The notes beneath the pieces are model-generated. The model worked only from the letters and a program-made list of their open reading frames with translations. It did no database searches and was not told where the DNA came from. 64,000 nt of DNA from a virus (lineage: Duplodnaviria; Caudoviricetes), in IMG/VR virus record IMGVR_UViG_3300017763_003980; one strand, written 5' to 3'. Of this stretch, positions 6,804-31,361 are shown piece after piece. The stretch's first letter is position 1. Every line of letters begins with the position of its first letter. The translations under genes and the position numbers were made by a program.

Positions 6804-6821
6804 TACAAACGGTAGTATAAT
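6793..6821 (+). promoter_or_regulatory. Consensus sigma70 promoter for the heptose cluster
   Basis: TTGACA (6793-6798), 17-nt spacer, TATAAT (6816-6821). Confidence 0.85.
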
Positions 6822-11081: not shown

Positions 11082-14000
11082 GCTTCTCCCCACTTAATAA
11101 TAATATTTGAATTAATATCTGAACCTGTCACTTTATACACATTAATAGCTAACACGTCTGGACCATTTGGAAATGTACCTCTACCGCCTAATGGAGTGTT
11201 TGTAAGTTCTTTTAGATCTTTTAGATCTAGTGTAGAACGTTCTCCTGGCACAGCAATAAATGAGAATACAGTTTCGCCTGGTCTAGCAAACGGTGGTTGT
11301 TCAAATGTAACTTCAACTGTACCTGAGCTTAGTGCTAGTGTACCTGTATATGAGTTGTTAAAGTTTATCTCATAAAACGTATTCCCGCCCCAAGTAATAC
11401 TTTGTATACTGTTTATATAAGTGTTAGCAGGGAATGTCAATCCGTTGTTACCACCAGTAACCGCAGTGCCAACAATAGCCGATGCACTATCAACACTTGA
11501 TGTAGTAAAGTAACCATAGTTTTTGTTTACAAGTGCTGCATTAAATGTAACGGTAAAGTGGTTGGATGAGCTACCGCTGATCTGTCCTGAGAGTCGCCTT
11601 GATAGTCTAAAGTATGCCCAATCATTTGAATTTTGTCCACTGATGTAACCATAATCAATAGTAGTATTAGCTGGAATATTTGTGCCTGTAATAACCTTAC
11701 CTTCAACAATACTTGTATCAGTTGTACCAAAGGTAGCAAAGTATTCTTGTGGATTGATGTAAATGTAATAGTTATTATTATAACCACCAACATAGCTAGG
11801 TCTAGTACCAAACTGTCCTGTAATCGAAGCCACAGATGTTATGTTAGCTGTAGTAGCTGATGTACCATCTGTCCATGTAACACCACCACCAGATGCAATT
11901 TGTGCAAAACTAGGCTGACCACCTTGTGCCACACCATTTAGTCCTGTCCAGTTAACGTCACTTGGATTAAGAGGATAGTTGTTAGGATTTAGCACACCTT
12001 CGATAACAATACCCCCGGAACCTGTATCTGATGTCACCTCAAGTCCGTTAAGTAGTAATTGTGCTCTATTAAGCAGTTCTCGCTCTCCTAAGTCACCTGT
12101 AATAGCGTTAGAAACACTAGGTGCTAGTCGCATCATAAATGCAGTCTGTTTAGTTGTACTAACTGTGATTCCTGTTTCAGCGTAACTAAAAATGTAACCT
12201 CTATCTTCATCAAATCCGCCATCTGTAAGGAACGCACTACCCCAGTGACTAATAAGTGGTGTAATTGTTTGTGAAATAATAACAACACCTGTTCTAGCTA
12301 GGTGTGTTACTGCTGAGCCTCCTGTGTAACTACGTTCTGCTCCTGCTTGGAATGTAAGTAAATTAGCAGCTCTGCTTACACCAGTTAGTGTATTTGTTTC
12401 TTTGTTGTTAGCTGTGTACGTCATTACTTCGTTGTCAATGTATACAGTTGCTTGGTATGGAAAGAAGCTGCTATCTTCTAATTCAATAGTAGTTTGACTT
12501 GCATCCATTTGAGTTTTTAACTTTCCTGGAGGACCTTCGTTAGTAACTTCGTAACGCACAGGCAAGTTACCTGAACGCATAAATGCTTCTGTGTTTACGT
12601 TTGAATTACGCATTCTATGTGCAAAAACAAAATTACCATTTGAACCACGTACCATCCAATCAATAAATCCAGCACCATACCATGTATACTGAATTCCAAT
12701 CATCTGCATCTTAGCAATGTCCATATTATAACCGCTTGGACCAGTGCCATCTAATCTGTCTAAGTTAAACTCACTTTGTTTGGCTTTTTTATCACTTACT
12801 AGTGCTACTTTTGCACCTGTAATGTTTATAACGCCGCGCCAGTCTGGTGTTACTGACATTGCAGTATCACTACTAACATGACTTACAACGTGTGTCATAC
12901 CTTTGATAATAATTCTATCACCGGCCTTTAATTGATCTCTAAATCTAGTGTTTGTCCCTACAATAGCATTTTCATCTACATTAAGTGCAATAGTTCCGGC
13001 AATTTGTTTTGTTCCTGTACGCTGTACTGCACTAATTTGTGTACCATCAAACTCCCAGAAAATTCCGTTTTGATCGTCAAATATTCCAGAACGTACAGTA
13101 GCGCCATGCCAGCTTACAACACTCATTTGTGCAGAAAATCCTAGTACTGCTGTAGTTGCACCCAATCTACGTTTTGCTCGTACTTTAAATGTTCTTTCGT
13201 CTACAACTGATGAAACTGTATAATCAAACTCTTCGCCAACACCTGTGCTAACGCCGCTGTTGTATCCTTCTGTTTCTATTCCTAGTAAACGTATTACACC
13301 ACCTACTTGTACACCGTGATCGTTATCATCTGTAGTAATAGTAATTAAACTATCAAGTTCTACACCATCTGCTACTACACTCTGTAGATCGTAACTTGGT
13401 GCAAATAGAGCACCAGTTGTATACATAATACCTTTACCTGACTGGTATCTAATATACTTTTTACTTTGACGTATTGCTTGTGCTCCATGTTGTGGACCGC
13501 CAGTACCTAGCTGTACGCCTCCGTCATATGGTCTATGCACAAAGAAGCTGTCTGGCCTCGGATATACAATTCCTTGTAGTACGTTACTTGCATCTACTGT
13601 AATTGCTCCAGTAGTTCTAGCTTGATATCTTAAACTAGTAACACTAGGCACCTCTGTTGCAAAAAATGAGCCGCTAGCTAGTTCGTGATTATTTGTACCA
13701 CTATCACTTGTAATATTTACAATAAATGTATCGCCTGGAACTAATCCGTGTGCCGCAGGCCAGTTCATATCAATAGTAGCTAGAGCTGCGTAGCTTATTG
13801 TTTGATCTACATTAATAAAAGACGATGTGGCTTCTGATACTGTAATTGTGGAAATAATATCAATATTTGTGCCAGGATTAGCAATAGTATAATTTGCAGC
13901 TACACTAGTAATACCTCCATTACTTGCACCGTTTACATACAGCTCTACGTCATTAAGGGGAGATGATCCTTCTAATAATGTACCTGGAATATTAATTCTA

Positions 14001-17000
14001 TCGCCTACTTTATATCCAGAACCTGTTGAAAAAATACTAATATTATCATAAGAACTAAAATTTCTTCTTAAACTAAACGTTGCACTTGTACCTACATTTG
14101 GTTGATTTGTCCCTGTTACTGCGAATGGTCCTGTTGGTTGTGCTGCTGTTCCTGTTATTGTTATGCCAGTTATTCTACCAGCTGCAACATCGTCAATTGA
14201 TGTAACTGTAGCTATTGCATCATTAGCAGGTGTTGCACCTCTTAAATTAGTTCCTAATAATTTAAGCTGTTGTCCAATATTATACCCTAGCCCTCCAGGA
14301 TTTTCAATCTGTATATTAGTATATTCAGTATCAGATAGCTCAACTGTAAATGTTGTTCCTGTACCTTGTCTAGCTGATCCGCTAACAGAGTTAGCAGTTC
14401 TTCCGTTATACGAAGTACCTGTAGTAGTATATGTTAAAATTGCACCATTAGCATCAACACTAACAATAGTGCCTGTAATATCGTTTGCTGGTGTTGCTCC
14501 TCCTAGTCCTGGTGCATTACCAGCAATAGTAAAAGTTTCTCCTGCAAGATAATTAAGTCCTCCACCGCCTGTGACAGTATAGCTTGCTCCGTTTATTGTT
14601 ACAGTAAATGTTGCTCCGCCATCTCCACCTGCTGTGTTAGAAGTAAAAGGTACTGTAGTATATTGATCAGATCTTTGTGGCGCAGAATTAGTAGTAAAGT
14701 CTATAGCCGAGATAGAACCTACTGCACCTACACTGGCTGCATTAAAGGTAATGTTAGCACCACCACCTCCGCCTAATACAGCATCAGCAATAGTAATTGT
14801 ATCTCCAGCAGTTACGCCTGTGCCTGCACTTACAATTGTAATTTCGTTTATATCAACATCGCCTGCTGTAGTGATACTTGCTACATCAAATGTTAACGCT
14901 GCGGCACCACCGCCTCCTAGATTAGCATCAGCAATAGTAATTGTATCACTTACCGCATTAGCAGAACCTATTGTAGCAATAGTAATACTTACTATCGAGC
15001 CGCCGCCACCTACTTGTATATTAAATGTGCCAACTGTACCTGAGCCACTACTTGTACCAGTTACGCCATTGTATGTTCCTAATGTACGACTAGCATCAGC
15101 AGCACCAATATTGTTTACACTAGTAATTCCTCCTGCAGGTCTTACAATAACATTATATGTAGATCCACCACCGCCTGTGCTTGCTACACCATTGTATGTA
15201 CCAGGAGTTCTGTTTGCAGGAACTTGTGTAAGGGTATTAATACTGAGTACCTCTCCGCCTGACGTCACTCCTGTAACAGTTACATAATTATTATTAAATT
15301 CTGAGGCGCCCGTAGGCTGAATTACATCTCCTGCTAATACAATAGTTTCCCCTATTAAGTAGCCGGATCCTGCATTATTAATAGTTACTCCAGTATATAC
15401 GCCATTCAAGTATGTAACATTAAAGTTTCCATTTATGCCTGCACCACCGTATGCTTCGTGTGAAACAACACCTAAATTAGCATAACCATTAAAACTTAAT
15501 CCTGATATGTCTGCTGTATTAATATCACCATCACTGTTAACACTAGTAACCACTAGTGTAACATCGTTTGCTGGAGTGTCGCCTCCGAAATCAGTTCCTA
15601 AGAATTTTATATTATCTCCAACCGCATAATTCAACCCGCCGTTAGTAATACTATTAAGTACATATTGGTTACTTGAATCTTGTGATGGAGAAATACTAAA
15701 TTCTGCACCATTACCATTAAATCCTACATTACTACCAGACACAGCACTATATGACACAATATTACCAAATCTTGGACTTGTAAAGTTACCGCTAAACTGT
15801 ATTCCTTTACCGCTTGCGCCTACACCTACTGTTTGTACATAAATTGCTGAGCCATCACCTCTATCTACCGCTTGGTTAACAGCTATTCCTGTAGTACTTT
15901 CTACTTCAAGTGTATCAGTACCTATAGCTGTTGTTGCTGTTGTAGTTGGTGTTAAAAATGTTCCTCCGCCAGCACTAGTATCAATTATTTGGGTAGCTTG
16001 AGAACCTACAGGAAGTCCAGCATGAGATAATGGAGAGCCAACTTCTGGAGCAGCTCCATCAAATGGGATAATTGTGCTACCAGGTAATACTGATAACTGT
16101 GTTACAAAACTACCAGATGACCCGTTACTTGCTATAGAAAAATCTGGCTGGCCGATGCTTGCTCCTGTATAAAACCCTGCTTTTCTTAGCTGACAATACG
16201 TAGTTACAAGCACTTCGCCATTAGATGTACCAACTTTAGCTTTTGCAAAGTAAGTAAATGTTTTATTTGTAGGTACAGTGTTTACAATAAAAGATCCTTC
16301 AGCCCTTGCTGCGCCAACAACACTATCTTCTAATGCTTTAATTGTAATAGGTTGCCCTGGCTCAAAGCCGTGTGCAACTACTGTTGTAACTGTAATTAAG
16401 CTTGCACCAATACCTGATGTACCTGAACTTGCATCTGTTACAACATTTTCTACTGCTGTGTTTGTCGCTGGTATTTCGTATACACTTGGATATCCGCGTA
16501 ACGTGCCAATAGCAGACCATTTAGTTGGCTGTAGACCATACTCAAAGTCAGCATCAAGCATACTTAAAGGATTAGCAATACGCATACGTTCAATAGCATC
16601 TGTGCCAAAGTCATATGGTCTAGTTGTTACAACACTTTTTCCATTTTCAACCTGTTCAACAAATACTTGTAAATGATCTGTTGATAGGTGCGAGCTTGTG
16701 TCGTAATTAAACCAAATTTTAGTTATAGCATCAGTAGTTTGTAAATAAGTGCTAAAATCCTTATCATATCCTTTAGTAATTAATTTTGCATCAGCACCGT
16801 TTTCAGAATTTGAAAAGTTATAAATAATTTCATTTTTTGTAGTATTAGTTATAAGAAGTAATTCATCTAATCCCCAACGCCCTTGTACTTTTATACTACC
16901 AACACCGCTTTCAACAAGTGTCGGAAGTTGATCAAGGCCTAGTGTAATAACATCGATAATAATAGCACTAAGTTCATTAATTCTAGGAATTGCACCAGCT

Positions 17001-17449
17001 TCGGCATTATCGCCACTAGTATCAGTTGTTTGAATTACTCCTGTTTGATTACCAGAGTATGCAGTATTAGTAAAAATATAATCTCTAATTATTTCTTTTA
17101 TTTTGGCATGAGTTTGTATTTCAGGCTGTCGGTCGCCGTCAACTTGTGCTACAGAGCCTTCCCAATAATAACTTGCTATTTTTCTTGTTTCTTCATTGCC
17201 ACTATATCGTAAATCCCACAAGTAAGCATCAATTACATATCCTACATCTCTTTCACATTTAGCTTCGTTATATACATACCCTGCAAATCCTGTTGCGTTC
17301 GCAGCCACTTGTGCAGCTATCCATGCTGTTGCTTCTTTTTGTATATAATACTTGTTACCATATAGTAGAGCATATGCATTTGGATAAACATATCCTGTTC
17401 TACTCATTCCTGGCTTGAAGACGTAATCTTTTATCTGTGTTTTTGCCAT
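11072..17449 (-). CDS. Very large virion structural protein (tail fibre / baseplate-associated), 2125 aa
   Basis: Gly/Thr/Ser-rich with repeated GxGYxxGxxIxIxG..GGxTPAND units; lies in the tail module. The exact role is inferred. Confidence 0.65.
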   Translation of the reverse strand: MAKTQIKDYVFKPGMSRTGYVYPNAYALLYGNKYYIQKEATAWIAAQVAANATGFAGYVYNEAKCERDVGYVIDAYLWDLRYSGNEETRKIASYYWEGSVAQVDGDRQPEIQTHAKIKEIIRDYIFTNTAYSGNQTGVIQTTDTSGDNAEAGAIPRINELSAIIIDVITLGLDQLPTLVESGVGSIKVQGRWGLDELLLITNTTKNEIIYNFSNSENGADAKLITKGYDKDFSTYLQTTDAITKIWFNYDTSSHLSTDHLQVFVEQVENGKSVVTTRPYDFGTDAIERMRIANPLSMLDADFEYGLQPTKWSAIGTLRGYPSVYEIPATNTAVENVVTDASSGTSGIGASLITVTTVVAHGFEPGQPITIKALEDSVVGAARAEGSFIVNTVPTNKTFTYFAKAKVGTSNGEVLVTTYCQLRKAGFYTGASIGQPDFSIASNGSSGSFVTQLSVLPGSTIIPFDGAAPEVGSPLSHAGLPVGSQATQIIDTSAGGGTFLTPTTTATTAIGTDTLEVESTTGIAVNQAVDRGDGSAIYVQTVGVGASGKGIQFSGNFTSPRFGNIVSYSAVSGSNVGFNGNGAEFSISPSQDSSNQYVLNSITNGGLNYAVGDNIKFLGTDFGGDTPANDVTLVVTSVNSDGDINTADISGLSFNGYANLGVVSHEAYGGAGINGNFNVTYLNGVYTGVTINNAGSGYLIGETIVLAGDVIQPTGASEFNNNYVTVTGVTSGGEVLSINTLTQVPANRTPGTYNGVASTGGGGSTYNVIVRPAGGITSVNNIGAADASRTLGTYNGVTGTSSGSGTVGTFNIQVGGGGSIVSITIATIGSANAVSDTITIADANLGGGGAAALTFDVASITTAGDVDINEITIVSAGTGVTAGDTITIADAVLGGGGGANITFNAASVGAVGSISAIDFTTNSAPQRSDQYTTVPFTSNTAGGDGGATFTVTINGASYTVTGGGGLNYLAGETFTIAGNAPGLGGATPANDITGTIVSVDANGAILTYTTTGTSYNGRTANSVSGSARQGTGTTFTVELSDTEYTNIQIENPGGLGYNIGQQLKLLGTNLRGATPANDAIATVTSIDDVAAGRITGITITGTAAQPTGPFAVTGTNQPNVGTSATFSLRRNFSSYDNISIFSTGSGYKVGDRINIPGTLLEGSSPLNDVELYVNGASNGGITSVAANYTIANPGTNIDIISTITVSEATSSFINVDQTISYAALATIDMNWPAAHGLVPGDTFIVNITSDSGTNNHELASGSFFATEVPSVTSLRYQARTTGAITVDASNVLQGIVYPRPDSFFVHRPYDGGVQLGTGGPQHGAQAIRQSKKYIRYQSGKGIMYTTGALFAPSYDLQSVVADGVELDSLITITTDDNDHGVQVGGVIRLLGIETEGYNSGVSTGVGEEFDYTVSSVVDERTFKVRAKRRLGATTAVLGFSAQMSVVSWHGATVRSGIFDDQNGIFWEFDGTQISAVQRTGTKQIAGTIALNVDENAIVGTNTRFRDQLKAGDRIIIKGMTHVVSHVSSDTAMSVTPDWRGVINITGAKVALVSDKKAKQSEFNLDRLDGTGPSGYNMDIAKMQMIGIQYTWYGAGFIDWMVRGSNGNFVFAHRMRNSNVNTEAFMRSGNLPVRYEVTNEGPPGKLKTQMDASQTTIELEDSSFFPYQATVYIDNEVMTYTANNKETNTLTGVSRAANLLTFQAGAERSYTGGSAVTHLARTGVVIISQTITPLISHWGSAFLTDGGFDEDRGYIFSYAETGITVSTTKQTAFMMRLAPSVSNAITGDLGERELLNRAQLLLNGLEVTSDTGSGGIVIEGVLNPNNYPLNPSDVNWTGLNGVAQGGQPSFAQIASGGGVTWTDGTSATTANITSVASITGQFGTRPSYVGGYNNNYYIYINPQEYFATFGTTDTSIVEGKVITGTNIPANTTIDYGYISGQNSNDWAYFRLSRRLSGQISGSSSNHFTVTFNAALVNKNYGYFTTSSVDSASAIVGTAVTGGNNGLTFPANTYINSIQSITWGGNTFYEINFNNSYTGTLALSSGTVEVTFEQPPFARPGETVFSFIAVPGERSTLDLKDLKELTNTPLGGRGTFPNGPDVLAINVYKVTGSDINSNIIIKWGEAQA

Positions 17450-17455
17450 ATTATT

Positions 17456-18322
17456 CTAAATCCCAAATGCTATTGCAAACGCTGTCGACGTTGTATCTAC
17501 ATATTTTTTGTTAGGCACTGCATTAATTCCTGTAACTGCTCCGCTTAGTGTAGCTGTTGTAAATGCAGCTGTTGACGGTGTTGTTGCTCCGATAGTTGAG
17601 TTATCTATTGCACTGTTATTTATAGGACCTACTATCCTACCAGCAACACTATCGATTAGTAATGTGCTATCATCTGAAAAAACTGAGCCTTTTAAATCAC
17701 CCGTCACTCCCCCGGTAGCTGAAATCATATTAGCTACACTCATAGTTCCGCCTACATTTACATTTCCTTGTATTCCTGTTCCGCCTGTAACCTTTAAGGC
17801 ACCAGTTGTTGTACTAGTACTTGCTGTTGAGTCAGTAATACCTACTGTACTAAAATTTCTTGCTTGATCTAAAACTGTAATAACGCCACGCACACTGCCG
17901 GAAGAATTACCATAATAAAGAGTATCTGGAGCACTTAATGGAACGGTCCATGTAAGCCTTCCGGATGATTTATTTAGTGCCGAAGCTCCAACAGTACTAT
18001 CACTGTGACGTAGTCCGTTACTATAGTTTATAGCTGGATCTACTGCACTAAAAATATTAAATGTAAGAGTAGTAAATGCTAAATCAAATGTACTAGTTTG
18101 ATTTCTAAAAACCGTAATAGGAGGTTGATCTATTACTTGTCCATCAAATCTAAAATTACCATTGCTTTCTATAAAATCAAAGTCAGCTGCAATACCTTGC
18201 TCGTCTGCATTAACAGACAACGTTAAAGTAGTTGCAGTAATGTTTCCTGCCGCATCAACAGTAAAACTAGGGCTTTTAAAGCCGAAGTCTGATCTTAAAG
18301 GTGTATTAACAGTCGTTGACAT
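17456..18322 (-). CDS. Putative tail / structural protein
   Basis: Thr/Gly-rich fibre-like segments (STTTGALKVTGGTGI); late promoter and GGAG RBS upstream. Confidence 0.55.
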   Translation of the reverse strand: MSTTVNTPLRSDFGFKSPSFTVDAAGNITATTLTLSVNADEQGIAADFDFIESNGNFRFDGQVIDQPPITVFRNQTSTFDLAFTTLTFNIFSAVDPAINYSNGLRHSDSTVGASALNKSSGRLTWTVPLSAPDTLYYGNSSGSVRGVITVLDQARNFSTVGITDSTASTSTTTGALKVTGGTGIQGNVNVGGTMSVANMISATGGVTGDLKGSVFSDDSTLLIDSVAGRIVGPINNSAIDNSTIGATTPSTAAFTTATLSGAVTGINAVPNKKYVDTTSTAFAIAFGI

Positions 18323-18361
18323 TTGTTACTCCATATAGTATATTTAGCCTACTTAGGAATG

Positions 18362-18763
18362 TCAACTAGTTAACGGATTTTGATTTTGAAAGTAATTTGC
18401 AGTGAAAATAAACTTAGCACCTTCGTATCCTGTCTTAGCTGATATTAATAAGTCTACATACGATTGGTTAACTGTTACTGATAAGTCTACAAGATCATTA
18501 CCCAAATTACTTCGACCAACTACACTTAGATTAGCATAATCCACACCGACTGCAACAATACATTTTACAATTTCTTTATTGGCATTGTTATAATCAATTG
18601 AAATAGTAAATTCTGCTGCACTAAATTCGCCGGCGTGCCAACGCTCTACTTGTGTGTTTGTGTAAGCTTGTTTCCAGGGTCCGTTGTGAGAAGTAGCACC
18701 ATTGTTTGTTACTAATAGTGTTTTTTTGATACCTTCTTTAAAGTAATTTGCGATATTAAACAT
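18362..18763 (-). CDS. Hypothetical protein (probable structural)
   Basis: 133-aa ORF preceded by GATAAATA and an AAGGA RBS. Confidence 0.6.
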   Translation of the reverse strand: MFNIANYFKEGIKKTLLVTNNGATSHNGPWKQAYTNTQVERWHAGEFSAAEFTISIDYNNANKEIVKCIVAVGVDYANLSVVGRSNLGNDLVDLSVTVNQSYVDLLISAKTGYEGAKFIFTANYFQNQNPLTS

Positions 18764-18787
18764 AATGATCCTTTGTCATTATATTTA

Positions 18788-20614
18788 TCAGTTATTCCAT
18801 ACTGTAATAAGCTTGTTAAATTCAGGCAAATATAAATATTCAATATCACTAGTAGATAGAGTACGTATAGCATCATCTAAGGTTTCTACTAATGGTTCTC
18901 CTCCTAAATTAAAACTTGTGTTAAAGATGATAGGAACGCCTGTTTTTTCTTTGAATGTTTTTATAATATCGTAGTAATGAGGATTTTGTTCTCTACTTAC
19001 TGTTTGAATCCTGCATGTACCGTCAACGTGTATAATAGCAGGAATTTTCTCTTCGACTCCTGGTTGACAATTTACAGCATACATCATCGTAGGTGAACTT
19101 TCCATGCCACGCAGATCAAACCATTCATGTGCATCCTCTTCAAGTATACTACCAGCAAATGGTCTAAAATATTCTCTACGTTTAATTTCGTTTACAAAGT
19201 CTTTGCCGTCTTCAAATGTTGGATCAAACATTAAGCTTCTATTTCCTAATGCACGTGGTCCATTTTCAGATCTGCCTTGAAAGTTTGCAACAATATTCTT
19301 AGAAGTCATTAGTGCTACAACATCTTCGTGTGTAGCGTCTTTTATTTCTGCGTCATATTTTTCTACTGTGCTATAAACATCTTGTTCTGAATATTCGTAT
19401 TTAGGTCCTAAAAATACATCATTAGCACGATTATTTACTTTTGTATCTTGACTAATTTTATAGTGTTGATACAATGCCGCCCCCATCGCTGTTCCGGCAT
19501 CATTAGAAATAGGTTCTACATAAATTTCAATACCTTCATCTTTTAAAGCATCTAAGTAATGATAATTTGCAACACAATTTAATCCATATCCGCCGCTAAT
19601 TACAACTTTGTTTTGTTTTGATATTTTCACAGCATGTCTAATAAGTTTTACTACAGCCTCTTGTGTCGCTTGCTGTACAGCATATGCCAAATCTCTTCTA
19701 TTTTGCAAATATGTAACATCGTCTTGATCAAATTCTAGATCAACCTCATCACTATTTAATTCTTTATATTGTGGCATATTGATTACAGCACCATTAGGAT
19801 ATCTTGGAACAATTAAATTTCTATTAGTAAGAGGTATATTCATATTACTATCATTATCCATAATAGAAGGAATATTATCATTAGGTTTGCCGTAAGGTGA
19901 TAGCCCCATTGTTTTTCCAGCTTCAATTGCTGTAAATCCGCAATATTCTGTAACAGCTTCATATGCTTTTACAATTCCTGCACGATCGTGCATAAATGTA
20001 TTATACACTGCACCCGGGTCGTCCCAGCCATCACCGCCCCAGTTATCAATGTTAACAGAAGGTATTGCATCTCTAGCGCCTAAACTTTTATGCAAAGTTT
20101 TAAAGTTTGCTGGGTAATTACATTTATAAATGCTTTCAGTTTCCCATATAGTCATTTGATCATTTTGATGTTGTAAAGGGAAAAATGTTCCAGCGCCGTC
20201 AACAATAAGTGCAACTGCACTATCAAATCCTGATCTATAAAATGCCATTGCGGCATGCATTTTATGATGGTGCATAGCTACATCAACTACTTGACCTTCT
20301 GTTCGAGGATCTTCTGAATTTCTTCTAGGGGTCTCAATCAGTCCTATTTTTCTTGCAAGACCGCTATACACATCTTCACCAGAATAATCTAATATTCCTG
20401 CGGTATTTAATGGAGTAGTATGACAAATAACCAAATGATCAAGTTTATCAGTATACTCTTTAATTTTAAGCATACTAGCTAATGCGCCGCCATCGTACTT
20501 TAAACGTGTTAGTCTTTCTTCTTCAATACTGAATACAATCTTGCCATCTTTAAGTAAGCATACTCCTGAGTTATGCCCTCTAGCTACACCTGCAATCCAA
20601 ACTGGCTTAGTCAT
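18788..20614 (-). CDS. O-carbamoyltransferase (NodU/CmcH/TobZ family)
   Basis: HNSG..EEERLTR, HHKMHA, VDGAG, GKTMGLSPYG, GGYGLNCVAN, GPRALGNRS, RPFA, HVDGTCRIQTV, NTSFN. Confidence 0.92.
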   Translation of the reverse strand: MTKPVWIAGVARGHNSGVCLLKDGKIVFSIEEERLTRLKYDGGALASMLKIKEYTDKLDHLVICHTTPLNTAGILDYSGEDVYSGLARKIGLIETPRRNSEDPRTEGQVVDVAMHHHKMHAAMAFYRSGFDSAVALIVDGAGTFFPLQHQNDQMTIWETESIYKCNYPANFKTLHKSLGARDAIPSVNIDNWGGDGWDDPGAVYNTFMHDRAGIVKAYEAVTEYCGFTAIEAGKTMGLSPYGKPNDNIPSIMDNDSNMNIPLTNRNLIVPRYPNGAVINMPQYKELNSDEVDLEFDQDDVTYLQNRRDLAYAVQQATQEAVVKLIRHAVKISKQNKVVISGGYGLNCVANYHYLDALKDEGIEIYVEPISNDAGTAMGAALYQHYKISQDTKVNNRANDVFLGPKYEYSEQDVYSTVEKYDAEIKDATHEDVVALMTSKNIVANFQGRSENGPRALGNRSLMFDPTFEDGKDFVNEIKRREYFRPFAGSILEEDAHEWFDLRGMESSPTMMYAVNCQPGVEEKIPAIIHVDGTCRIQTVSREQNPHYYDIIKTFKEKTGVPIIFNTSFNLGGEPLVETLDDAIRTLSTSDIEYLYLPEFNKLITVWNN

Positions 20615-20626
20615 ATTTTTTCTATC

Positions 20627-21562
20627 CTAATTAATATCTTTTTTAATTTCTTCAACAATATGTTTTTCTATTTGATCATTCATTTGCATTATACCTTCAT
20701 TTACTCTATCTGAATATTCATCAATTGTAATACGTATAGGACTGTAAACTCTTGATATTTCTCCCATATCAAGAACATTAAAAAAGTCGCAATCAGGATA
20801 AGATGTATTAATAGGAAAAGTACTTCCTATAATAACAGTACTTGGTACATCAAATGCATAAGCCATATGCTGTCCTACACTGTCACAACCTACAAAATGA
20901 TCTGCTTCTGCAATAATTGAACACCAAGTTCTAAGATCTATTCCTTGAGGCACTGCAATTTGTCTGTCAACGCCATGTTTTTTAAAGTCAATTGCTAGCT
21001 CTCCCATAAAAATAATTGCATAATCATTACTAATATTTTTTATAATATTAATTAAGTTAGTTGGTTCAATACTTCTACCGCTATAATCAGTAAGTGTTCC
21101 GTTTTGTTCTGTAATTCCTCTACCAAACGGTTGAATAACGATAGCTTTTTCACATTTAGTTTTTTCTTTTACTTCTTTAATTACTTGGCCAGCTTGTAGC
21201 AGTTCACCTTTACTAAGTCTAATAGTTGGTTTAGGTAAATCTCTAATGCCTTTATTATTAATAGCAATATCATATGCTTGTGCTAAACTACATTTTTGGT
21301 TATAATATTCCCAAACTCTGTAAGGTTCAGGACTTGCTAAATTCATATCTTTTAACTTATCTTCAAACAAGTTTTTATGCCAATGATCATATGCTTTAGC
21401 ATGTAGTAAAGGGTGTCCTTTAAAAAAATCTGTGCCGCCTTCACATATAATTAGAAAATCGTCATCTGGATTTTCTTCATGAAATTTTTCTAGTGCAGGT
21501 ATTGAACATACTACTCTTCCTGCGCCACCGTTAACAAAAAATGCTGTGTTTCTTTCTGACAT
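20627..21562 (-). CDS. GT-B glycosyltransferase, GT9 (heptosyltransferase)-like
   Basis: N-terminal GGAGRVVCSIPAL and C-terminal IAEADHFVGCDSVGQHMAYAFDVPSTVIIGST resemble the GT9 DSG..HlA..l..P...lfG.T signature. Confidence 0.65.
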   Translation of the reverse strand: MSERNTAFFVNGGAGRVVCSIPALEKFHEENPDDDFLIICEGGTDFFKGHPLLHAKAYDHWHKNLFEDKLKDMNLASPEPYRVWEYYNQKCSLAQAYDIAINNKGIRDLPKPTIRLSKGELLQAGQVIKEVKEKTKCEKAIVIQPFGRGITEQNGTLTDYSGRSIEPTNLINIIKNISNDYAIIFMGELAIDFKKHGVDRQIAVPQGIDLRTWCSIIAEADHFVGCDSVGQHMAYAFDVPSTVIIGSTFPINTSYPDCDFFNVLDMGEISRVYSPIRITIDEYSDRVNEGIMQMNDQIEKHIVEEIKKDIN

Positions 21563-21614
21563 ATTTCTAAAATCCTATTGTTATAAACTGTGTACTTAAT
21601 TACAACTACATGAA

Positions 21615-21622
21615 TATTTATA
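21615..21622 (-). promoter_or_regulatory. Late promoter TATAAATA for the GT9-carbamoyltransferase unit
   Basis: Exact motif about 50 nt upstream of the GT9 ATG. Confidence 0.7.
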
Positions 21623-21651
21623 TATGAATTATTTTAGAGATGGTCAAAGTG

Positions 21652-21671
21652 AAAGGCGCCTAAGCGCCTTT
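21652..21671 (-). terminator. Probable intrinsic terminator after the fibre-tip cassette
   Basis: Perfect 8-bp stem AAAGGCGC/GCGCCTTT with a 4-nt loop and a short T tract. Confidence 0.6.
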
Positions 21672-21692
21672 GACTGTGTAAGTTTTAAGTGT

Positions 21693-22754
21693 TTAATCTA
21701 GTAAATCTGAAACATCAATATATAGTTCATGCGATGTATCATGGAAATATTTTTTCATTTCTGGATCTGCGATTTCATCTACTAAATGATCTGGATTATC
21801 ATCATCTGCTCTAGCTTCTACAAAATCAACATCTTGAACAAAATCAGGTTTAACAGGATTAGAATCCCACTGTGTTTTCCAAGGATCAACTTGCTTAATT
21901 TTAGTAAGTGTAACTTTTGCTCCTGTACCTGCACCGTTAGTTACGAAGAAACATTCAGTATATGTAGCTGCTTCGGGGTGATATAATGCTCGTTTATTAG
22001 AAGCAGTAAATCCTGTGATAGCTCCATCACCATCAACTGCATCAACAGTTATTTTAACTTCATCAACTACTGTAGTATTTTTATATTTAGGATCTTGTAC
22101 TAGTAGTACATCACCTACTGCGTATCCAGTTCCACCTGTAGGAATAGTTGCTGTCCAGTCAACACCAGTTAGTTCTAACACATCTCTCAAATACTGTTTG
22201 TGTGCTGTTACTGCATTATATAGATCAGTTGGTAAATCGTCTGATAAAGTTTTGTCTGCTACTGCTAAAAGAACATTTCTAAAAGCAATTCTTTCTGGCC
22301 ACGTTATAAAAGGTTTTTTCCAAGGGTATGGTTTTACAAAATCTTTTGCAATAGGATCATACACTATTTCACTCATTTCATATGCGTGTGCAGGATCAGG
22401 AAATGCATCACTAGTATGTTTTCTTGTTTGTCCTGGAACATCTTCTTCTTTGTCTGGAATAGCCTGTTGTGATGTGCCTCCGAATATGCTACAAATCTCA
22501 GGATTATCTTTTGCGTCTACTTCTATTAGATAACAGTCTGTGTTGCCCGGCATTGGCAAATTTCCATCGTATACCAACTTTGCAGCGATTTCATCTGGAT
22601 ATTCTGAATGTATAGTATTTGTTGTATTGTTAATCCATAAATATTTTTTAGCAGGACCTTTATACTTTATCCTACCAATTTTGTTTTGATCAGCAGTTTG
22701 ATGATATTGTTCATCTGGAACCGGATATTCAAATTGTATTGTTATTTCACTCAT
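21693..22754 (-). CDS. Tail fibre assembly chaperone-like protein with inserted fibre repeat
   Basis: W...RN.LL..D..L..D.P......HKQYLRD motif; paralog of 24376-25053. Confidence 0.55.
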   Translation of the reverse strand: MSEITIQFEYPVPDEQYHQTADQNKIGRIKYKGPAKKYLWINNTTNTIHSEYPDEIAAKLVYDGNLPMPGNTDCYLIEVDAKDNPEICSIFGGTSQQAIPDKEEDVPGQTRKHTSDAFPDPAHAYEMSEIVYDPIAKDFVKPYPWKKPFITWPERIAFRNVLLAVADKTLSDDLPTDLYNAVTAHKQYLRDVLELTGVDWTATIPTGGTGYAVGDVLLVQDPKYKNTTVVDEVKITVDAVDGDGAITGFTASNKRALYHPEAATYTECFFVTNGAGTGAKVTLTKIKQVDPWKTQWDSNPVKPDFVQDVDFVEARADDDNPDHLVDEIADPEMKKYFHDTSHELYIDVSDLLD

Positions 22755-22763
22755 AATTTTTCC

Positions 22764-23558
22764 TTACCAATAGACCACATAAATCATACCGCCTGCACCC
22801 GGAGAACCACATCTACATTCGTTGCCGTGTGTCCAAGCTGTCTGACCACCACCTGCTGGATGATACGCTTGAAAATAGCAAGCCTGTCCGCAACAACTAC
22901 TATAGCTGCCGCATACTCCGCCGTGACAACTTTGACAACAAGTGCTTGTTCCTTGAGGTCTTAGTCCTGGTGTTCCGTATCCTGAACCCATATACTGAAA
23001 TCCATAATGATAGCAGAATTGATTACTTTGTTGTAAACCAGTTGTATTACTATATGTTTGTAGTCTTGTAATGCTGCCAGAATCATATTGGCATCCGCCA
23101 CAACATGTACAAGTTGAACAACAACTATAGCATCCTGATGCGGAAAAACAATGGTTTCTATCCATACAATATCCGCCTTCTATACAAACACACCATTGGC
23201 CACTTACACATGCATAAGAAGGACATCCTTGATATCCACAAATGTTACCGTTGCTTGTATTACTAGTTCCAGCGGAACAAAAACAAACCTGCTGTCCTGG
23301 AGTAACATTTACAAAGTATTTTGCATATCCTCCGCTATAGCCGCCTTTGCCTTGCATACAACAACATGATCTTCCTCCAGAACTACCGCCACTCCAAATT
23401 TCAAAAACCATTTTAGATCTAGTTGCTGGTACTGTCCATACGTATGCACAGCCGCCGTTCTGCTCTAACCACGTGTTGGTGTTTTCTAATAAAAATTCTG
23501 CAGGTGTAGTAGTGCTTCCTTCTTCGTACCCGTATAATAAATCTTTTAAATTAGCCAT
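22764..23558 (-). CDS. Cys/Gly-rich tail fibre tip-like protein (paralog C)
   Basis: WTVP...EIWSGG..G...CCC and C-terminal G.PGAGG.+.+.+; 30 Cys in 264 aa by manual count. Confidence 0.6.
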   Translation of the reverse strand: MANLKDLLYGYEEGSTTTPAEFLLENTNTWLEQNGGCAYVWTVPATRSKMVFEIWSGGSSGGRSCCCMQGKGGYSGGYAKYFVNVTPGQQVCFCSAGTSNTSNGNICGYQGCPSYACVSGQWCVCIEGGYCMDRNHCFSASGCYSCCSTCTCCGGCQYDSGSITRLQTYSNTTGLQQSNQFCYHYGFQYMGSGYGTPGLRPQGTSTCCQSCHGGVCGSYSSCCGQACYFQAYHPAGGGQTAWTHGNECRCGSPGAGGMIYVVYW

Positions 23559-23580
23559 TTATTGTGTCCTTTATTTTTCA

Positions 23581-24366
23581 TTATGATGTTTGCGTCCAAT
23601 GAATTACTACTAAGCCACCTGCGCCTGGATTTCCGTAATTTGGGTTCCAATCACCGTGATTTGTAGCAGTTGGTCCGCCTCCACCTGGAAAATGAGCATA
23701 TCCGCCACCGCAGCAACCATGGCACATTGAGGAACAAAAATCTTTACTTTGTCTAAAATTTCCGCCTGTCATTGGAGCACTAGGCATATAACCAAAAGCC
23801 GAGTTATGACAATTAGAGCCTCCTTTAGCAGCGCCGCCGAATCCACAAATTCCCATAGTGCCACAGTAACTACCACATTGTATACTTGAACAACCGTTGT
23901 AGTTACAATTATCGCCAAAGTAGCATCGAGATCCGCCACCGAGTCCGCCTTCTGCACATACTACATTTGCTGTTTCTGATTCTCCATATACATAACTTGG
24001 ACATCCTTTACAACCTATGCAGGTTCTATCTGTACATCCTGTGGTTCCTCCAGCACAAACCCTATATACACGGGTCTCTAATGATGTTCCTGGTGTAGGG
24101 TGTTGAACAATTTTTCTTGTGTACGATCCTGATCCGCCTGGCCATCCTTGAAAACAACAACAAGCGCCGGCACCACCGCCACCGCCGCCCCACATTTCAA
24201 CTGTAAACCATGTTACTCCAGTAGGAACAGTCCATGCACAACAACAACCTCCGTTGTTTCCGGAGTCAACGCTTGTGTGGTACACAACTAGGTTATGATG
24301 CGTAATTGTACCACCACCGCCTCCGCCGGCGTTAGCATATTGTAATAGTGTTGACAGTGCTGACAT
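23581..24366 (-). CDS. Cys/Gly-rich tail fibre tip-like protein (paralog B)
   Basis: NGGCCCAWTVP..EMWGGGGGG..CCC...GNPGAGGLVVIHW; 23 Cys by manual count. Confidence 0.6.
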   Translation of the reverse strand: MSALSTLLQYANAGGGGGGTITHHNLVVYHTSVDSGNNGGCCCAWTVPTGVTWFTVEMWGGGGGGAGACCCFQGWPGGSGSYTRKIVQHPTPGTSLETRVYRVCAGGTTGCTDRTCIGCKGCPSYVYGESETANVVCAEGGLGGGSRCYFGDNCNYNGCSSIQCGSYCGTMGICGFGGAAKGGSNCHNSAFGYMPSAPMTGGNFRQSKDFCSSMCHGCCGGGYAHFPGGGGPTATNHGDWNPNYGNPGAGGLVVIHWTQTS

Positions 24367-24375
24367 ATTCTACTC

Positions 24376-25053
24376 CTAAACCTTTGTATCTGGTGCTGAA
24401 GGCATTGGAACTTTCCACGGATCAACTTCATCCGATTCACCTTTTTTATATGTAGCCGGCAAGTCTCTTAGTGCTGCTCTATGAGCTACCCACGCTGCTT
24501 TTATTGATTCAGGCATATCAGGTGAAATTTTACTGTCTGAACTTTCTAGCATACTATTTCGGTTAGCTATTAGTGTATCCCATGTTTGTGGTGCAGGAAT
24601 ATATGGTGGAGTTTTCCACTCTTCTGCTGATAAATCATATTCTAAAGTAGTTACACCGTGATATGTTTCTAAAACCTCTGGCTTTGAGTTTGTTTCCCAA
24701 GTTCCGCCGCCTGGCACATCTTCTGTTACTTTAGACTGTCCTGGATAAGTAATTGTTGTGTCGCCTGGTCCTATTATTACTAGTATAAGCGGATCATCAG
24801 CAAAAGTTACTTCGACTCTAGTTGTGCCTGTTGGAACTGGTATATTTTCTCCATCGCTTACATCTTCGGTATCAGCACCAACTCTAGACATTTTTCCTTT
24901 ATTATCACCATCAGTATCAACAAACACCCAAGTTCTATGTGGGCCAGTATATTTTGCTGTTACTGTTTTGCCTTCACTGTCGTCTTGCGAAAAGATTTCA
25001 TTTGGTACTTTGTACGTAAAATCTTGTTCAGTAATTATTGTATTCTCTGGCAT
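24376..25053 (-). CDS. Tail fibre assembly chaperone-like protein
   Basis: TWDTLIANRNSMLESSD...PDMP...WVAHRAALRDLP...DPW, typical of the phage tail assembly chaperone C-terminus. Confidence 0.65.
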   Translation of the reverse strand: MPENTIITEQDFTYKVPNEIFSQDDSEGKTVTAKYTGPHRTWVFVDTDGDNKGKMSRVGADTEDVSDGENIPVPTGTTRVEVTFADDPLILVIIGPGDTTITYPGQSKVTEDVPGGGTWETNSKPEVLETYHGVTTLEYDLSAEEWKTPPYIPAPQTWDTLIANRNSMLESSDSKISPDMPESIKAAWVAHRAALRDLPATYKKGESDEVDPWKVPMPSAPDTKV

Positions 25054-25077
25054 TTGTTTTTCCTCTTATTCGTTTAT

Positions 25078-25875
25078 TTAACTGCTGTATGCTACTATGA
25101 TTAAGCCGCCGGCTCCGAACTGTCCGTGATCGTGTGTTCCACCGCATGATACTGCTGAATATGAACTTCCTCCTGGAAATGCTGTTCTAATTCCGTCGCC
25201 GTTGTGTTTATTTCGTCCACTGCCTTGCCAAGTAGTGTCGCATAAATTATATGATCTCATACCACCTTGGCCCCATCCACCGTCTGAATAATACCAGTAG
25301 TCAGTGTGACAGTAAGTATTTCTCTTGCCCATTTGTCCTGTGCCGTTCCAGCCATAATCTTTAGCTGCTGCGCCTGGTTGCCAGCTTGCGCTGCTGCCGC
25401 CTTGTATTCTTCCCCAGCAACATGAATAGTTACTAAACGGACTTGAAAATCCAGGTTGGCTTGAACCTTGTTCTCCACCGCAGGCACAACCTACAGTAGT
25501 TCCCGTCCAATTTTCTTGTACATAGGTACTGCAGCCGCCACAGCCAACATTACTGTTATCATATGCACAACAAGATGTGCCGCCTGCACAAAATCTATAT
25601 TGACAACCAGGTGTAACATCAAGTCTTTTAAACGTAAACTGTCCTGAAGTACCTGAATGTGACTGAAATGCACAACAACATCCACTATTTCCACTTGAGC
25701 CTCCACCGTACATCCACATCTTCATTGATGTTGTTCCAGCCGGTACAGTCCAAAGACAGCAACACCCACCGTTGGACACACTGTTTAAACTTGTATGGTA
25801 AATTGCAAAATAGTTTGGTATACCTCCGCCGGCAGTTGGCGTAAGTGAGTTAAGTATAGTAGAAAGAGTTGCCAT
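25078..25875 (-). CDS. Cys/Gly-rich tail fibre tip-like protein (paralog A)
   Basis: NGGCCCLWTVP..MYGGG.SG...CCC...GQFGAGGLIIVAY; 19 Cys by manual count. Confidence 0.6.
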   Translation of the reverse strand: MATLSTILNSLTPTAGGGIPNYFAIYHTSLNSVSNGGCCCLWTVPAGTTSMKMWMYGGGSSGNSGCCCAFQSHSGTSGQFTFKRLDVTPGCQYRFCAGGTSCCAYDNSNVGCGGCSTYVQENWTGTTVGCACGGEQGSSQPGFSSPFSNYSCCWGRIQGGSSASWQPGAAAKDYGWNGTGQMGKRNTYCHTDYWYYSDGGWGQGGMRSYNLCDTTWQGSGRNKHNGDGIRTAFPGGSSYSAVSCGGTHDHGQFGAGGLIIVAYSS

Positions 25876-26558: not shown

Positions 26559-29500
26559 CTAAGCATTTAAAAACATATTCAGTGCGACCGGTGTACCACT
26601 TATGCCGCCTGTATAGTTTACGTTTGTTGTTATATTTATCTCTTGATTGGTTGTATGAGATATTGTCTGACCACTTATATTAACTTGGCCAGCTGTGAGT
26701 GAGTTTACATTTAGTTCACCTGCTCCGCCACCTATTTGACTTGATATGTAAGTCTTGATAGCTCGCTGTGTTGGTACAATACTGTCACTGTTGGCTGTAA
26801 ATGTGCCATCAGTTGAAAACTCAGTAATAGTAGCACTAGTACCACCTAATGATATCTCGCCTAATTGCAGTTCTTGCAAACCGCTTACGTTAAACGCATC
26901 AGCGTTTAATGTTGCTCTACCAGTTGACTGTTCAACACTGAATAATTCGCCAACTCTAAAGTTACCATCTTGGTCAGTTGAAGTATAAAATACTCTACCG
27001 CCTCCAAAGTCTTTTGTTTCGTCTGCTTGATCAGCAGCTGTACTTGGAGTTCCTGGGTAGTTAGTAGTAGTAACTCCTCCAGTACCTACATCTAAGAAGT
27101 CATGTCCTGTTAATCGTACCTGACTATATCTAGATCTAATTGTTACAGCTTCATTGTGTTCTGGAGCATCTGTAACACTTACTGTTGGACTTACTTGTAA
27201 TAGTGCAGAGTAATTACTTCCGCTACCTGAAACCTGTGTTACGCCCACTAGCTTGAGCCATGTGTTTGAGATGCCAGCAATTTCTACGTTTGCACCTTCT
27301 ACTGGTACTGATGTTAGTCCATCAACTTTAATAAACTGTCCTGGCTGATAAAAATCAGCATAACCGTTAGCTGATGCTACTGTTGCTGTAGCAGTATCAT
27401 ATCCTGTACCTCTATTACTAAATGTCGGTTGTCCAAGTACTCCGTCTCCTGTTCTAACTGTGTGAGGAGCTTCAACAGTGTTATTAGGATCAGTAATAGC
27501 CATTGTAGGTGTTGAGCTATATCCTGAACCAGGATGCCATATTCTTATTTGTGTAATTTTACCGTCTTCAACTTTAGCTCTTGCTTTTGCAATATCAGCA
27601 TATGCACTAACACCACCACCACTGAATACTAGTCTTGGTTCAATAACATATTCGGTTGTCGAATCAAGTGCAGAAGCAATACTTGCGCCATATACACTAT
27701 CCCATCCTGAAGAACCGTCACTGTTTTTAAGAACAGTAGCTATTTTAGTTCCTGAGTTATATGCATCAATATATGCATATTGACCCGCTCCAGTGCCACT
27801 TACAATCCAAATAGCCATACCTGCGTAAACTGCACTTCCGTTTGAGTCTGTATTACTAATTGTAATCTGAGTCGCTGTTCCTGCTTGTGCAGTATTAGTT
27901 GCTGTGATATATCCTGCTCCACCAATATTACTTGCTGGATCAGTAAGCCTTACTTCATATACAGCACCGTTGTACACATTTTCTGCACTTATTGCTGCAT
28001 CGTTATTACCGCCAACAATAGTAGTTGTTGTGTCGCCATCAGCATAGTTAACACCAGCATTTGTATATTCAAATAGTAAAATTTGATTTTTATCAGTTAA
28101 TACATTTTTAATATTAGCTTCTGTTGATTGGTTGGTAACTGTTCCTGTAATTGGTGTTTCTGTTGCATCAATGCCTTCTGCTACACAACCAAAGTCACCA
28201 TATGACGAGTTACCGTTTGTAGCTCTTATCTTACCACCATGTTCTGACAAATAACCTATGTGTGCAAAATAACTGAATACACTAACAAGTTCTGCTCTTC
28301 CTAAGTTAGTAACCCATGCTCCAATACCTTCGTCAATAATCTGTGTAAAATCATTTGCTACAATAGAGTCGTTACCGCCATCATGTATATCACCGTCAAT
28401 TTTTAAACCAATACATTTTGTACCAAATGTAGTAACATTTTGTATATAAGGAGATCTACTAGCTATCCATGCTTTTGTATCAGCTGGTCCATAGCCTGGA
28501 TCAAGACTTACAAAGGCGCCTGCTGTTGGTCGTTTGGTTCCATACGCATTAGCACCGCCTAGTGTACCTACTAGTCCGCTTACTGTACAGTTTCTTAATC
28601 CTGTTGCGTTACGCATAAAGAACATATTCTCAGTTGTACTACCGCTAACTGAATTAGCATATAGTAATGCAGCTGAAAGTGTTCTCCAATTACCTGTCCA
28701 AATTAAATCATATTTTATAGCATCTAAGTATCTATTTACATCTCTGGTACAGGCTGCAATAGTATACGTATAGCTTGGATATGTCACCGCAATATAAGCA
28801 TGTACTTCAGCTATTAAAAATGCTCTGTTTGCTTCAATACATTCTACTGCATATGTGTAACCTGTTGAATATTCAGCTGTTTCAGATCCTCTTGTGGTTG
28901 GAACTGTTGAATCACCTGATACTCCATTTACTCGGTAATCAATGTAATCTTCTAATTCTTGAAATAAAGCTTGAGCCGCTTGACCAGCTGCTGAACTACC
29001 AGCAGGTCTTGTTGTAACTTGTGACTCAGCATTACCTGTTGACTTTGTTATTGCACTATTAGCAACAATGTCGTCTATAATTGTTTTTAGTCTCTGTATA
29101 GCTGCAATACTTTTTGGAACATCTGTAGCTTGTGTTTGTACACCTGCAGGTATTATTTTTGTTGAACGTAATTCATCTCCAATCACCGCAGTATTTGCTG
29201 GAACAAGTATAGGTAATGTTTCTGCAAAGGTCCCACTCTTTACATATAAAGAGTTATTAGGAATAACTGCTGCTGTCATTGCAGATACATTGCCTGCTGT
29301 AACAGCTGCTTTAAGTATACCTGCTAAACTTGTAGCAGTTGATAGATCATCTGCAAGTTCTGCTTGTGCTGCTTCAGTTTGTTGTGTAGCTGTAGTATTG
29401 CCAGTAAGTGTTTGATAATTTTGTGCAGGTGCTACATTACTTAATACTGCATCAGCTACAACTAATACCCTATCAATCATTGCGTTAAATTCAGCAGTTT

Positions 29501-31331: not shown

Positions 31332-31361
31332 TTAACGCTCCATAATCCTTATATATATTTA

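Follow-up and report, generated by a model that had tools for sequence, protein, structure and literature searches.

A predicted sugar-modifying gene pair in the tail module of a marine phage

The 64,000-nucleotide stretch of DNA analysed here (IMG/VR record IMGVR_UViG_3300017763_003980; hereafter, the window) comes from an uncultured marine T4-like myovirus, and carries genes for tail sheath, gp15, neck, major capsid protein, portal and long fibres. Among its tail genes lie two adjacent open reading frames (ORFs) predicted to encode a glycosyltransferase of the GT9 fold and an O-carbamoyltransferase. A first-pass annotation, made from the sequence alone, had proposed that these ORFs form a late-expressed system for attaching carbamoylated heptose to the virion. 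Both ORFs are present as claimed, and the pair and its control elements are as follows.

20627–21562, minus strand: divergent GT9-fold glycosyltransferase (311 amino acids, phrog_8954), a predicted ADP-heptose-dependent transferase
18788–20614, minus strand: NodU/TobZ-type O-carbamoyltransferase (608 amino acids), assigned from Pfam, phrog_1601 and PDB relatives
21615–21622, minus strand: T4-type late-promoter box TATAAATA, 52 nucleotides ahead of the ATG of the GT9-like gene
21651–21672, minus strand: hairpin, a terminator-like putative insulator, past the 353-amino-acid gene (which ends at 21693) and just ahead of the late promoter

The two proteins are likely to be a sugar transferase and a sugar carbamoyltransferase that act in one pathway. 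Our best reading of their target, held tentatively, is a protein of the virion. We favour this target because the pair is co-inherited with fibre-tip genes, leads a set of late structural genes and includes an acidic transferase.

The 311-amino-acid protein has a GT9-like fold

The family of the 311-amino-acid protein, phrog_8954, is annotated as being of unknown function. Searches of Pfam and PDB with the single sequence yielded nothing useful, so the assignment draws on a family profile and a fold search. The protein scores 14.9 bits against PF01075, below the cut-off of 22. With the same model, 59 of the 72 family members give matches at E < 1, the strongest at 1.2e-8, and the S-CAM1 orthologue, at 22.0 bits, falls exactly on the cut-off. 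NCBIfam models for heptosyltransferase I/III and RfaQ give E values of 0.002–0.07 with the window protein. More than 3,800 close marine homologues were found, some of which carry the Joint Genome Institute (JGI) annotation ADP-heptose:LPS heptosyltransferase, where LPS denotes lipopolysaccharide. The family comprises 415 clusters among 1.8 billion representatives, found here only on phage or phage-like contigs, and forms a compact branch restricted to phages.

An AlphaFold2 model of the protein, built from an alignment of 72 sequences, has a predicted local distance difference test score (pLDDT) of 96. In VIA-align comparisons with this model, GT9-fold chains give Z scores of 18.8–23.8 over 252–281 residues, with root-mean-square deviations of 3.2–3.9, and other GT-B folds reach at most 12.4. 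The GT9-fold matches include 3TOV (Z 23.8), WaaF (21.4), TibC (19.9, over TibC residues 90–388) and WaaC (19.6). Also among the top matches of this fold is the plant subunit PnsB1, a non-enzymatic component of the complex formed by the NADH dehydrogenase-like enzyme (NDH) with photosystem I. The Foldseek ranking agrees with that of VIA-align, and its top 33 matches are nearly all GT9.

When the family profile was searched against PDB, only heptosyltransferases were recovered, in alignments that span D227..H232 and G246-x-T248. These alignments place D227 and H232 on WaaC D261 and H266, and G246-x-T248 on G280-x-T282. The donor motif of the window protein reads D227-S-x-G-Q-H232, and both D227 and H232 are present in 72 of 72 members. 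With hhalign, the family matches the single WaaC and WaaF sequences at probabilities of 52% and 81%, respectively, in the C-terminal domain only. Even family members with as little as 26% identity keep the donor-site residues unchanged; further polar residues that are nearly invariant are E79, D159, R163, R211, N252 and R277. These findings bear out the GT9 assignment made by the first-pass annotation, in that the protein has a GT-B, GT9-like fold with the donor motif, at a sub-threshold PF01075 score.

Proteins are known substrates of enzymes with this fold. TibC and Aah heptosylate the adhesins TibA and AIDA-I, respectively, using ADP-heptose as donor, and each acceptor is encoded next to its transferase; we know of no carbamoylation in either case. 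A specific likeness to TibC, which the first-pass annotation had suggested looking for, extends to the fold and not to the features peculiar to that enzyme. The phage protein (311 amino acids versus ~400) lacks the N-terminal part of ~90 residues and, to judge by motif alignment, has no Asp at the base position held by Asp110 in TibC. The conserved Cys4 iron finger is also missing from the phage family, in which only C19 is kept (37 of 72 members). The isoelectric point is 5.2 for the window protein (family median 5.9) and 9.0 for E. coli WaaC, and this acidity counts weakly against an anionic lipid or DNA acceptor.

The 608-amino-acid protein is a NodU/TobZ-type carbamoyltransferase

The 608-amino-acid protein consists of a Kae1-like N domain and a YrdC-like C domain, both of which score above their family thresholds (Carbam_trans_N PF02543, 103 bits against a cut-off of 24; Carbam_trans_C PF16861, 196.6 bits against a cut-off of 27). 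It matches phrog_1601, 'Nol-like carbamoyltransferase', at E 2e-165, and its PDB relatives include 7XB6 (E 5.5e-57), GdmN, NovN and TobZ (E 2e-42). The residues H116/H117/H120, D139, D372 and G452-P-R-A-L-G-N-R459 are invariant in 31 orthologues and align with the equivalent stretches of 7XB6. The metal-site residues presumably correspond to H114/H118/D137/D338 of TobZ. Judged by these motifs, the protein is an intact O-carbamoyltransferase of the NodU/CmcH/TobZ family with its metal and nucleotide sites kept, in agreement with the family originally named for it. A complex prediction for the carbamoyltransferase and the GT9-like protein scored 0.00, which gives no verdict either way.

In most relatives, a third gene encoding 270–310 amino acids, sometimes in two copies, lies between the GT9-like and carbamoyltransferase genes (for example, L009:10940-11854 and L045:11010-11927, and in ~50 other related loci). 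The only matches to its structural model (pLDDT 90) are carbohydrate esterases and O-acetyltransferases of the SGNH/GDSL type, and its conserved blocks are FGCS, GxGN and HP (G-x-S, G-x-N and His). An Atlas search pointed to DUF6071. The gene is absent from the window, from loci L005, L016/17 and L036, and from the cyanophages. Because relatives thus carry a cassette of three sugar-tailoring enzymes, we argue that the carbamoyltransferase acts on a sugar.

Enzymes of both kinds have also been linked to DNA. A phage NodU-type enzyme carbamoylates 5-hydroxymethylcytosine (5hmC) (PMC8670742), and phage GT-B enzymes are able to put heptose on the same base (bioRxiv 10.1101/2023.12.21.572611). The pair might therefore act on a hydroxymethylated base of the phage DNA, in a form of DNA or nucleotide hypermodification, although we regard this as very improbable. 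PF00303, the thymidylate-synthase/dCMP-hydroxymethylase family, was not found in S-CAM1, S-SSM7, P-SSM2, Vibrio phage D505 or five long related contigs, whereas it was detected in control genomes. Likewise, the four complete genomes yielded no C5 DNA methyltransferase in a search whose positive control worked. A search for Tet/JBP enzymes found nothing, yet it had no positive control and so does not demonstrate their absence. In addition, the published DNA heptosyltransferase resembles the T4 beta-glucosyltransferase, whereas the model of the 311-amino-acid protein resembles GT9 only, and this protein is acidic. DNA carbamoyltransferases identified by MetaGPA co-occur with thymidylate-synthase homologues rather than with glycosyltransferases (PMC8670742). 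Given the GT9-like and SGNH neighbours and the lack of a thymidylate-synthase homologue, we infer that the carbamoyl group is accepted by the hydroxyl of a sugar, not by 5hmC or a polyketide.

A scan of bacterial genomes for the origin of the carbamoyltransferase gave no donor lineage and no specific link to WapO. Its sole match at 82% identity (L097; PBPT01000082.1, 153 kb) is a phage contig binned as a metagenome-assembled genome (MAG) of Neomarinimicrobiota, and the other matches were at most 35% identical and scattered over phyla. Both L097 and a 338-kb contig encoding protein P0008 represent the same phage type as the window, and both are held in databases as Candidatus Neomarinimicrobiota/Marinimicrobia MAGs. 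This filing is probably a binning artefact and is at most a weak hint of the host.

The pair lies behind a late-type promoter and an upstream hairpin

A promoter of its own had been claimed for the pair, and the TATAAATA box is indeed in place. The motif occurs in the window at chance level (10 seen versus 10.8 expected), and its placement is non-random: five of the ten sites are intergenic, where intergenic DNA makes up 3.8% of the window, and each of the five lies 17–59 nucleotides before a start on the same strand (P ~2e-5). This intergenic, start-proximal placing is consistent with T4-type late promoters. The hairpin has an 8-base-pair GC-rich stem and a predicted energy of -16.6 kcal/mol (z = -5.4 versus shuffles). 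It is not among the calls of a consensus terminator scan because its T run is weak.

Both the hairpin and the exact TATAAATA box are retained in the closest relatives, and other relatives have TAAATA variants of the box. In one rearranged clade, a sigma-70-like promoter (TTGACA/T-17-TAxxAT) ahead of the pair replaces it. The late expression proposed by the first-pass annotation fits the box of this phage and its closest relatives, and the argument drawn from it is weakened by that clade. Directly 3' of the hairpin (window 21640–21655, minus strand) is a motif, (C)TTTCACTTTGAC(C), that occupies the same place in related loci L005, L007, L009, L019 and L021 and is retained even where the hairpin loops of relatives differ.

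The GT9-like and carbamoyltransferase genes are separated by 12 nucleotides. Between the carbamoyltransferase gene and the next gene there are 24 nucleotides, in which the terminator scan found no terminator. The first-pass description of an insulated two-gene unit therefore holds for the upstream side, which is closed by the hairpin, and not for the downstream side, which is open. Because of this arrangement, the pair probably opens a longer transcription unit of late genes rather than forming an insulated operon of two genes.

Exact matches to the stretch came from contigs of four RNA libraries, which belong to three studies. These contigs span the boundary between the GT9-like and carbamoyltransferase genes, and those in two runs of a single study also span the boundary between the carbamoyltransferase gene and the one that follows it. 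One RNA-library contig extends upstream of the late box. Such contigs show neither strand, ends nor level, and DNA carry-over is possible; no conclusion on the transcription unit was drawn from them.

A separate operon would supply the sugar donor

The first-pass annotation had also pointed to an hldE/hldD/gmhB cluster about 8 kb from the pair, and these assignments are confirmed as best NCBIfam matches, each of which falls under its equivalog cut-off. The genes overlap one another on the plus strand.

6793–6821, plus strand: sigma-70 promoter TTGACA-17-TATAAT, a 12/12 consensus match directly before hldE
6828–7976, plus strand: hldE (best NCBIfam match 305 bits, equivalog cut-off 521)
7966–8598, plus strand: 2-oxoglutarate (2OG)-Fe(II) oxygenase
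8595–9413, plus strand: hldD, ADP-heptose 6-epimerase (best match 224 bits, cut-off 275)
9403–10086, plus strand: second 2OG-Fe(II) oxygenase
10067–10468, plus strand: cupin (39% identity to P-SSM2 gp312)
10401–11081, plus strand: gmhB (best match 140 bits, cut-off 178)

No SIS-type GmhA was found, and the cupin, which is conserved with cyanophages, possibly stands in for it. The neighbourhood of epimerase, oxygenase and cupin is also present in P-SSM2. In that phage, gp311 (L003:12027-12371) is annotated as a 'phosphoheptose isomerase', but it starts with a DxDGT motif of haloacid dehalogenase (HAD) phosphatases. It does not belong to the SIS-type GmhA enzymes and probably represents the GmhB-like phosphatase, so that no cyanophage gene is assigned to the first step of the pathway either.

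The pair is inherited together with heptose and fibre-tip genes

A full-length GT9-like gene was found in 24 of 50,697 phage records, namely those of S-CAM1, S-CAM3, S-SSM7/6a, Sf-FS3, P-SSM2/5 and four single-cell viral contigs. Carbamoyltransferases with at least 44% identity to that of the window occur in exactly the same set of records. All cultured phages with the GT9-like gene also have hldE. This gene is not confined to them, being present in S-T4, Sf-CH5/8 and P-TIM68, which lack the pair. The first-pass annotation had suggested testing whether the GT9-like, carbamoyltransferase and hldE genes co-occur, and they do so in the same cultured species, contiguously in the cyanophages. In S-CAM1, S-SSM7 and P-SSM2, orthologues of the pair (T4-GC 302 and 303) are followed without interruption by heptose genes T4-GC 304–308, and the whole is flanked by tail-fibre genes.

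These cyanomyovirus clusters (P-SSM2 gp307–313, S-SSM7 gp120–130 and S-CAM1 gp109–115) are orthologous to the window genes. The GT9-like proteins share 47–56% identity and the carbamoyltransferases 46–60%, and hldE-type, epimerase and cupin genes are likewise present between tail-fibre genes. The two arrangements differ in that the cyanophage transfer and donor genes are contiguous, whereas the donor operon of the window phage is located 8 kb off, on the opposite strand, and follows a sigma-70 promoter. In addition, HldE is split in two in the cyanophages, and their GT9-like protein has a C-terminal extension of 60–100 amino acids.

We also surveyed 80 IMG/VR loci together with three cyanophage loci. 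In the IMG/VR set, a carbamoyltransferase gene comes after the GT9-like gene wherever the contig continues (81 of 83 when the cyanophages are included). Among loci with at least 8 kb on each side (n = 40), the carbamoyltransferase gene follows the GT9-like gene in every case. All 40 also encode Gly/Cys-rich fibre-tip paralogues, a Tfa-like chaperone and a long fibre no more than 10 kb from the pair. A giant structural protein is encoded within the same distance in 38 of these loci, and a 133-amino-acid gene stands beside the pair in 36. The association also holds where a rearrangement has placed the pair on the opposite strand, beside gp15 and NUDIX genes. In cultured phages, homologues of the 261-amino-acid fibre-tip protein are confined to carriers of the GT9-like gene (11 of 11 records).

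Distant members of the family (27–32% identity) were found in varied surroundings, and those at 27–29% identity that adjoin giant tail proteins or an Mtd_N fibre gene count in favour of a virion target. The homologue in Vibrio phage D505 (L004; 245 amino acids, 27% identity) lies between virion proteins of 2109 and 1756 amino acids. Homologues of this type belong to 77-kb vibriophages, ~30 related examples of which come from an oyster farm, and carbamoyltransferase and heptose genes are not nearby. Another distant member adjoins a Collar-domain protein (a faint Pfam match), a GT4 enzyme and an Mtd_N fibre gene. In a further case, the gene converges on a series of large, unannotated phage genes that may encode a baseplate.

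The window phage itself has no close cultured relative, since megablast of the region against the 50,697 phage records gave no match. Related IMG/VR contigs measure 165–268 kb with a completeness rating of only 45–75%, and therefore the genome is probably of jumbo size. The stretch 17400–22800 of the window is held at 99–100% of sampled words in 14 seawater or marine metagenome runs from at least 11 studies, and exact small contigs of this stretch are present in the four RNA libraries, which are marine. These matches indicate that the phage genotype is widespread.

Neighbouring virion proteins are candidate acceptors

As first described, the pair stands between the fibre-tip cassette and other tail genes. 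Its neighbours are as follows.

21693–25875, minus strand: 353-amino-acid protein and fibre-tip cassette, upstream of the pair
within 21693–25875, minus strand: Gly/Cys-rich paralogues of 264, 261 and 265 amino acids with 30, 23 and 19 Cys residues, respectively (phrog_4205, PF21722)
within 21693–25875, minus strand: Tfa-like chaperone, 225 amino acids, in the upstream cassette
18362–18763, minus strand: 133-amino-acid protein, downstream
17456–18322, minus strand: Ser/Thr-rich fibre-connector-like protein, 288 amino acids, downstream
11072–17449, minus strand: virion structural protein, 2125 amino acids, downstream

The downstream genes (11072–18763) are co-oriented with the pair, the terminator scan found no terminator between them, and they probably belong to the same late unit. 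Their products and the upstream fibre-tip proteins are candidate acceptors. Ser/Thr content was rejected as a pointer to the acceptor, because the values of 20–26% in the neighbours are typical of fibres and single out none of them. Farther upstream, the long tail-fibre proteins (1590 and 1624 amino acids; 26559–36236, minus strand) each contain 6–7 copies of CBM_5_12, a carbohydrate-binding module of the chitin/cellulose-binding type that is unusual for T4-like fibres.

A proposed route to heptose-decorated fibres and its alternatives

Folds, motifs, gene linkage and promoter elements were computed, and on them we base a proposal for the donor, the order of reactions and the acceptor. Phage HldE, GmhB and HldD would make an ADP-heptose-type donor from an early promoter, with the cupin possibly replacing GmhA. 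The GT9-fold enzyme would then move heptose onto an acceptor present late in infection. Next, the NodU/TobZ-type enzyme would O-carbamoylate this heptose, using carbamoyl phosphate and ATP by way of carbamoyl-AMP. The acceptor would be a host-recognition protein of the virion (the Gly/Cys-rich tips, the 288-amino-acid connector-like protein or the 2125-amino-acid protein), and the outcome would be a virus particle with carbamoyl-heptose on its fibres. A partnership between a GT9 enzyme and a carbamoyltransferase has a precedent in the Pseudomonas LPS core, where the 7-O-carbamoyl group of HepII is attributed to WapO (PMC8005017).

Put most specifically, this phage GT9 branch, apparently with Arg in place of the usual Asp, may O-heptosylate the phage's own fibre tips or giant protein, with carbamoylation to follow and, in most relatives, acylation or deacylation by the SGNH enzyme. 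We hold this fuller version a little more tentatively than the virion target as such. In a bolder variant, the 2OG-Fe(II) oxygenases of the donor operon would first hydroxylate the acceptor residues. Of the virion heptosylation that the first-pass annotation put forward, the enzyme folds and the linkage to an ADP-heptose supply are borne out, and the acceptor is suggested by gene position and co-inheritance with fibre-tip genes.

Several observations weigh against a virion target. In its fold, the protein is no closer to TibC than to LPS heptosyltransferases. The well-flanked loci are relatives with conserved gene order, and hence the count of 40 of 40 overstates independent support. Other distant family members lie at a tail/repair boundary, before the portal gene, or among oxygenases and a halogenase. 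Late timing of the pair is not conserved among relatives: ~13 of 57 non-redundant relatives have TTGACA/T-17-TAxxAT upstream of the pair and no late box. Moreover, hldE and hldD were not found in two of five long related contigs, both of which are of the rearranged clade and ~45–48% complete. Finally, Arg16 appears to occupy the position of the catalytic Asp13 of WaaC, with R in 68 and K in two of 72 members. This probable equivalence derives from alignment of a shared P-A-L motif and from the position in the first turn of helix 1. Position 11 is D in 36 and N in 27 of the 72 members, and is N in the window protein. If Arg16 does replace Asp13, the chemistry may differ from that of canonical GT9 enzymes, and even catalytic activity is presumptive.

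The same apparent substitution raises the prospect that no transfer takes place, and that the protein is an inactive GT9-like sugar-nucleotide-binding or assembly factor like PnsB1, which is non-enzymatic and ranks among the top structural matches. Equally, the product could be a soluble carbamoylated heptose that serves as a metabolite or signal, given that distant homologues found among oxygenase, halogenase and methyltransferase genes resemble components of small-molecule or peptide tailoring. We consider such outcomes quite improbable. The invariance of the donor-site and other polar residues suggests a working active site. Similarly, strict pairing with an intact carbamoyltransferase, and usually with an SGNH enzyme, fits the stepwise tailoring of a sugar that is transferred.

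A different acceptor would be the envelope of the infected cell, in line with the host LPS remodelling that the first-pass annotation named as its alternative. Carbamoyl-heptose placed on the LPS core or another surface glycan could mask receptors on cells and debris to spare progeny, or could exclude other phages, in line with the classical view of cyanophage 'LPS genes'. Among the closest structures of characterised proteins are those of the LPS enzymes WaaC and WaaF, which are CAZy GT9 enzymes with the same two-Rossmann fold and the same D..H and G-x-T motifs, and the JGI name of some homologues, as well as the early-type promoter before the pair in some relatives, would fit this target. 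An LPS core is precisely where carbamoyl-heptose is known to occur (WapO, PMC8005017), and the cyanophage genes have been filed under LPS biosynthesis (PMC3037559).

Nevertheless, envelope remodelling appears rather unlikely to be the function of the pair. Against it, the gene has a late box and comes first in a run of structural genes, both in this phage and in those most closely related to it. The phage protein is only 12–13% identical to WaaC and WaaF, falls below the Pfam cut-off, is acidic where WaaC is not, apparently does not retain the catalytic Asp of LPS heptosyltransferases, and is encoded among fibre genes. Its phage-restricted family has no direct link to the bulk of GT9, and the nearest bacterial carbamoyltransferases are likewise remote from that of the phage. 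That the phage carries a whole donor pathway suggests that its host makes no ADP-heptose; to our knowledge, the LPS of marine Synechococcus is without heptose.

Implications for marine phages

Other viruses are known to glycosylate their virions with transferases of their own, as in the capsids and tails of mycobacteriophages, the chloroviruses and mimivirus. The system proposed here differs from these in its transferase families and sugars, and has its own nucleotide-sugar pathway near structural genes. The cyanophage genes have reportedly been catalogued since the P-SSM2 genome of 2005. In published work, T4-GC 302 is only 'hypothetical' and the cyanophage cluster is of unknown function, possibly 'stuffer' or LPS genes (PMC3037559). 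Our literature search found no report of heptose or carbamoyl-heptose on a virion and no functional paper on the cyanophage carbamoyltransferase and heptose genes. The question is open to direct testing, since three carriers (P-SSM2, S-SSM7 and S-CAM1) are available as cultures and ADP-heptose is made by E. coli, which would allow co-expression.

If the host envelope is the target, the genes would be an ordinary auxiliary set. If fibres are the target, abundant ocean phages, including cultured cyanophages, would wear a modified bacterial-type sugar on their host-recognition organelles. This would bear on host range, on the resistance of particles to proteases and grazers, and on the reading of marine phage-host specificity from sequence, and it would give a function to cyanophage 'LPS genes' that have been without one since 2005. 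The system would then be the first heptose-based system of virion glycosylation, with virus-encoded ADP-heptose, and would be widespread in T4-like and jumbo phages of the ocean. It would also add to GT9 a branch with unusual active-site chemistry.

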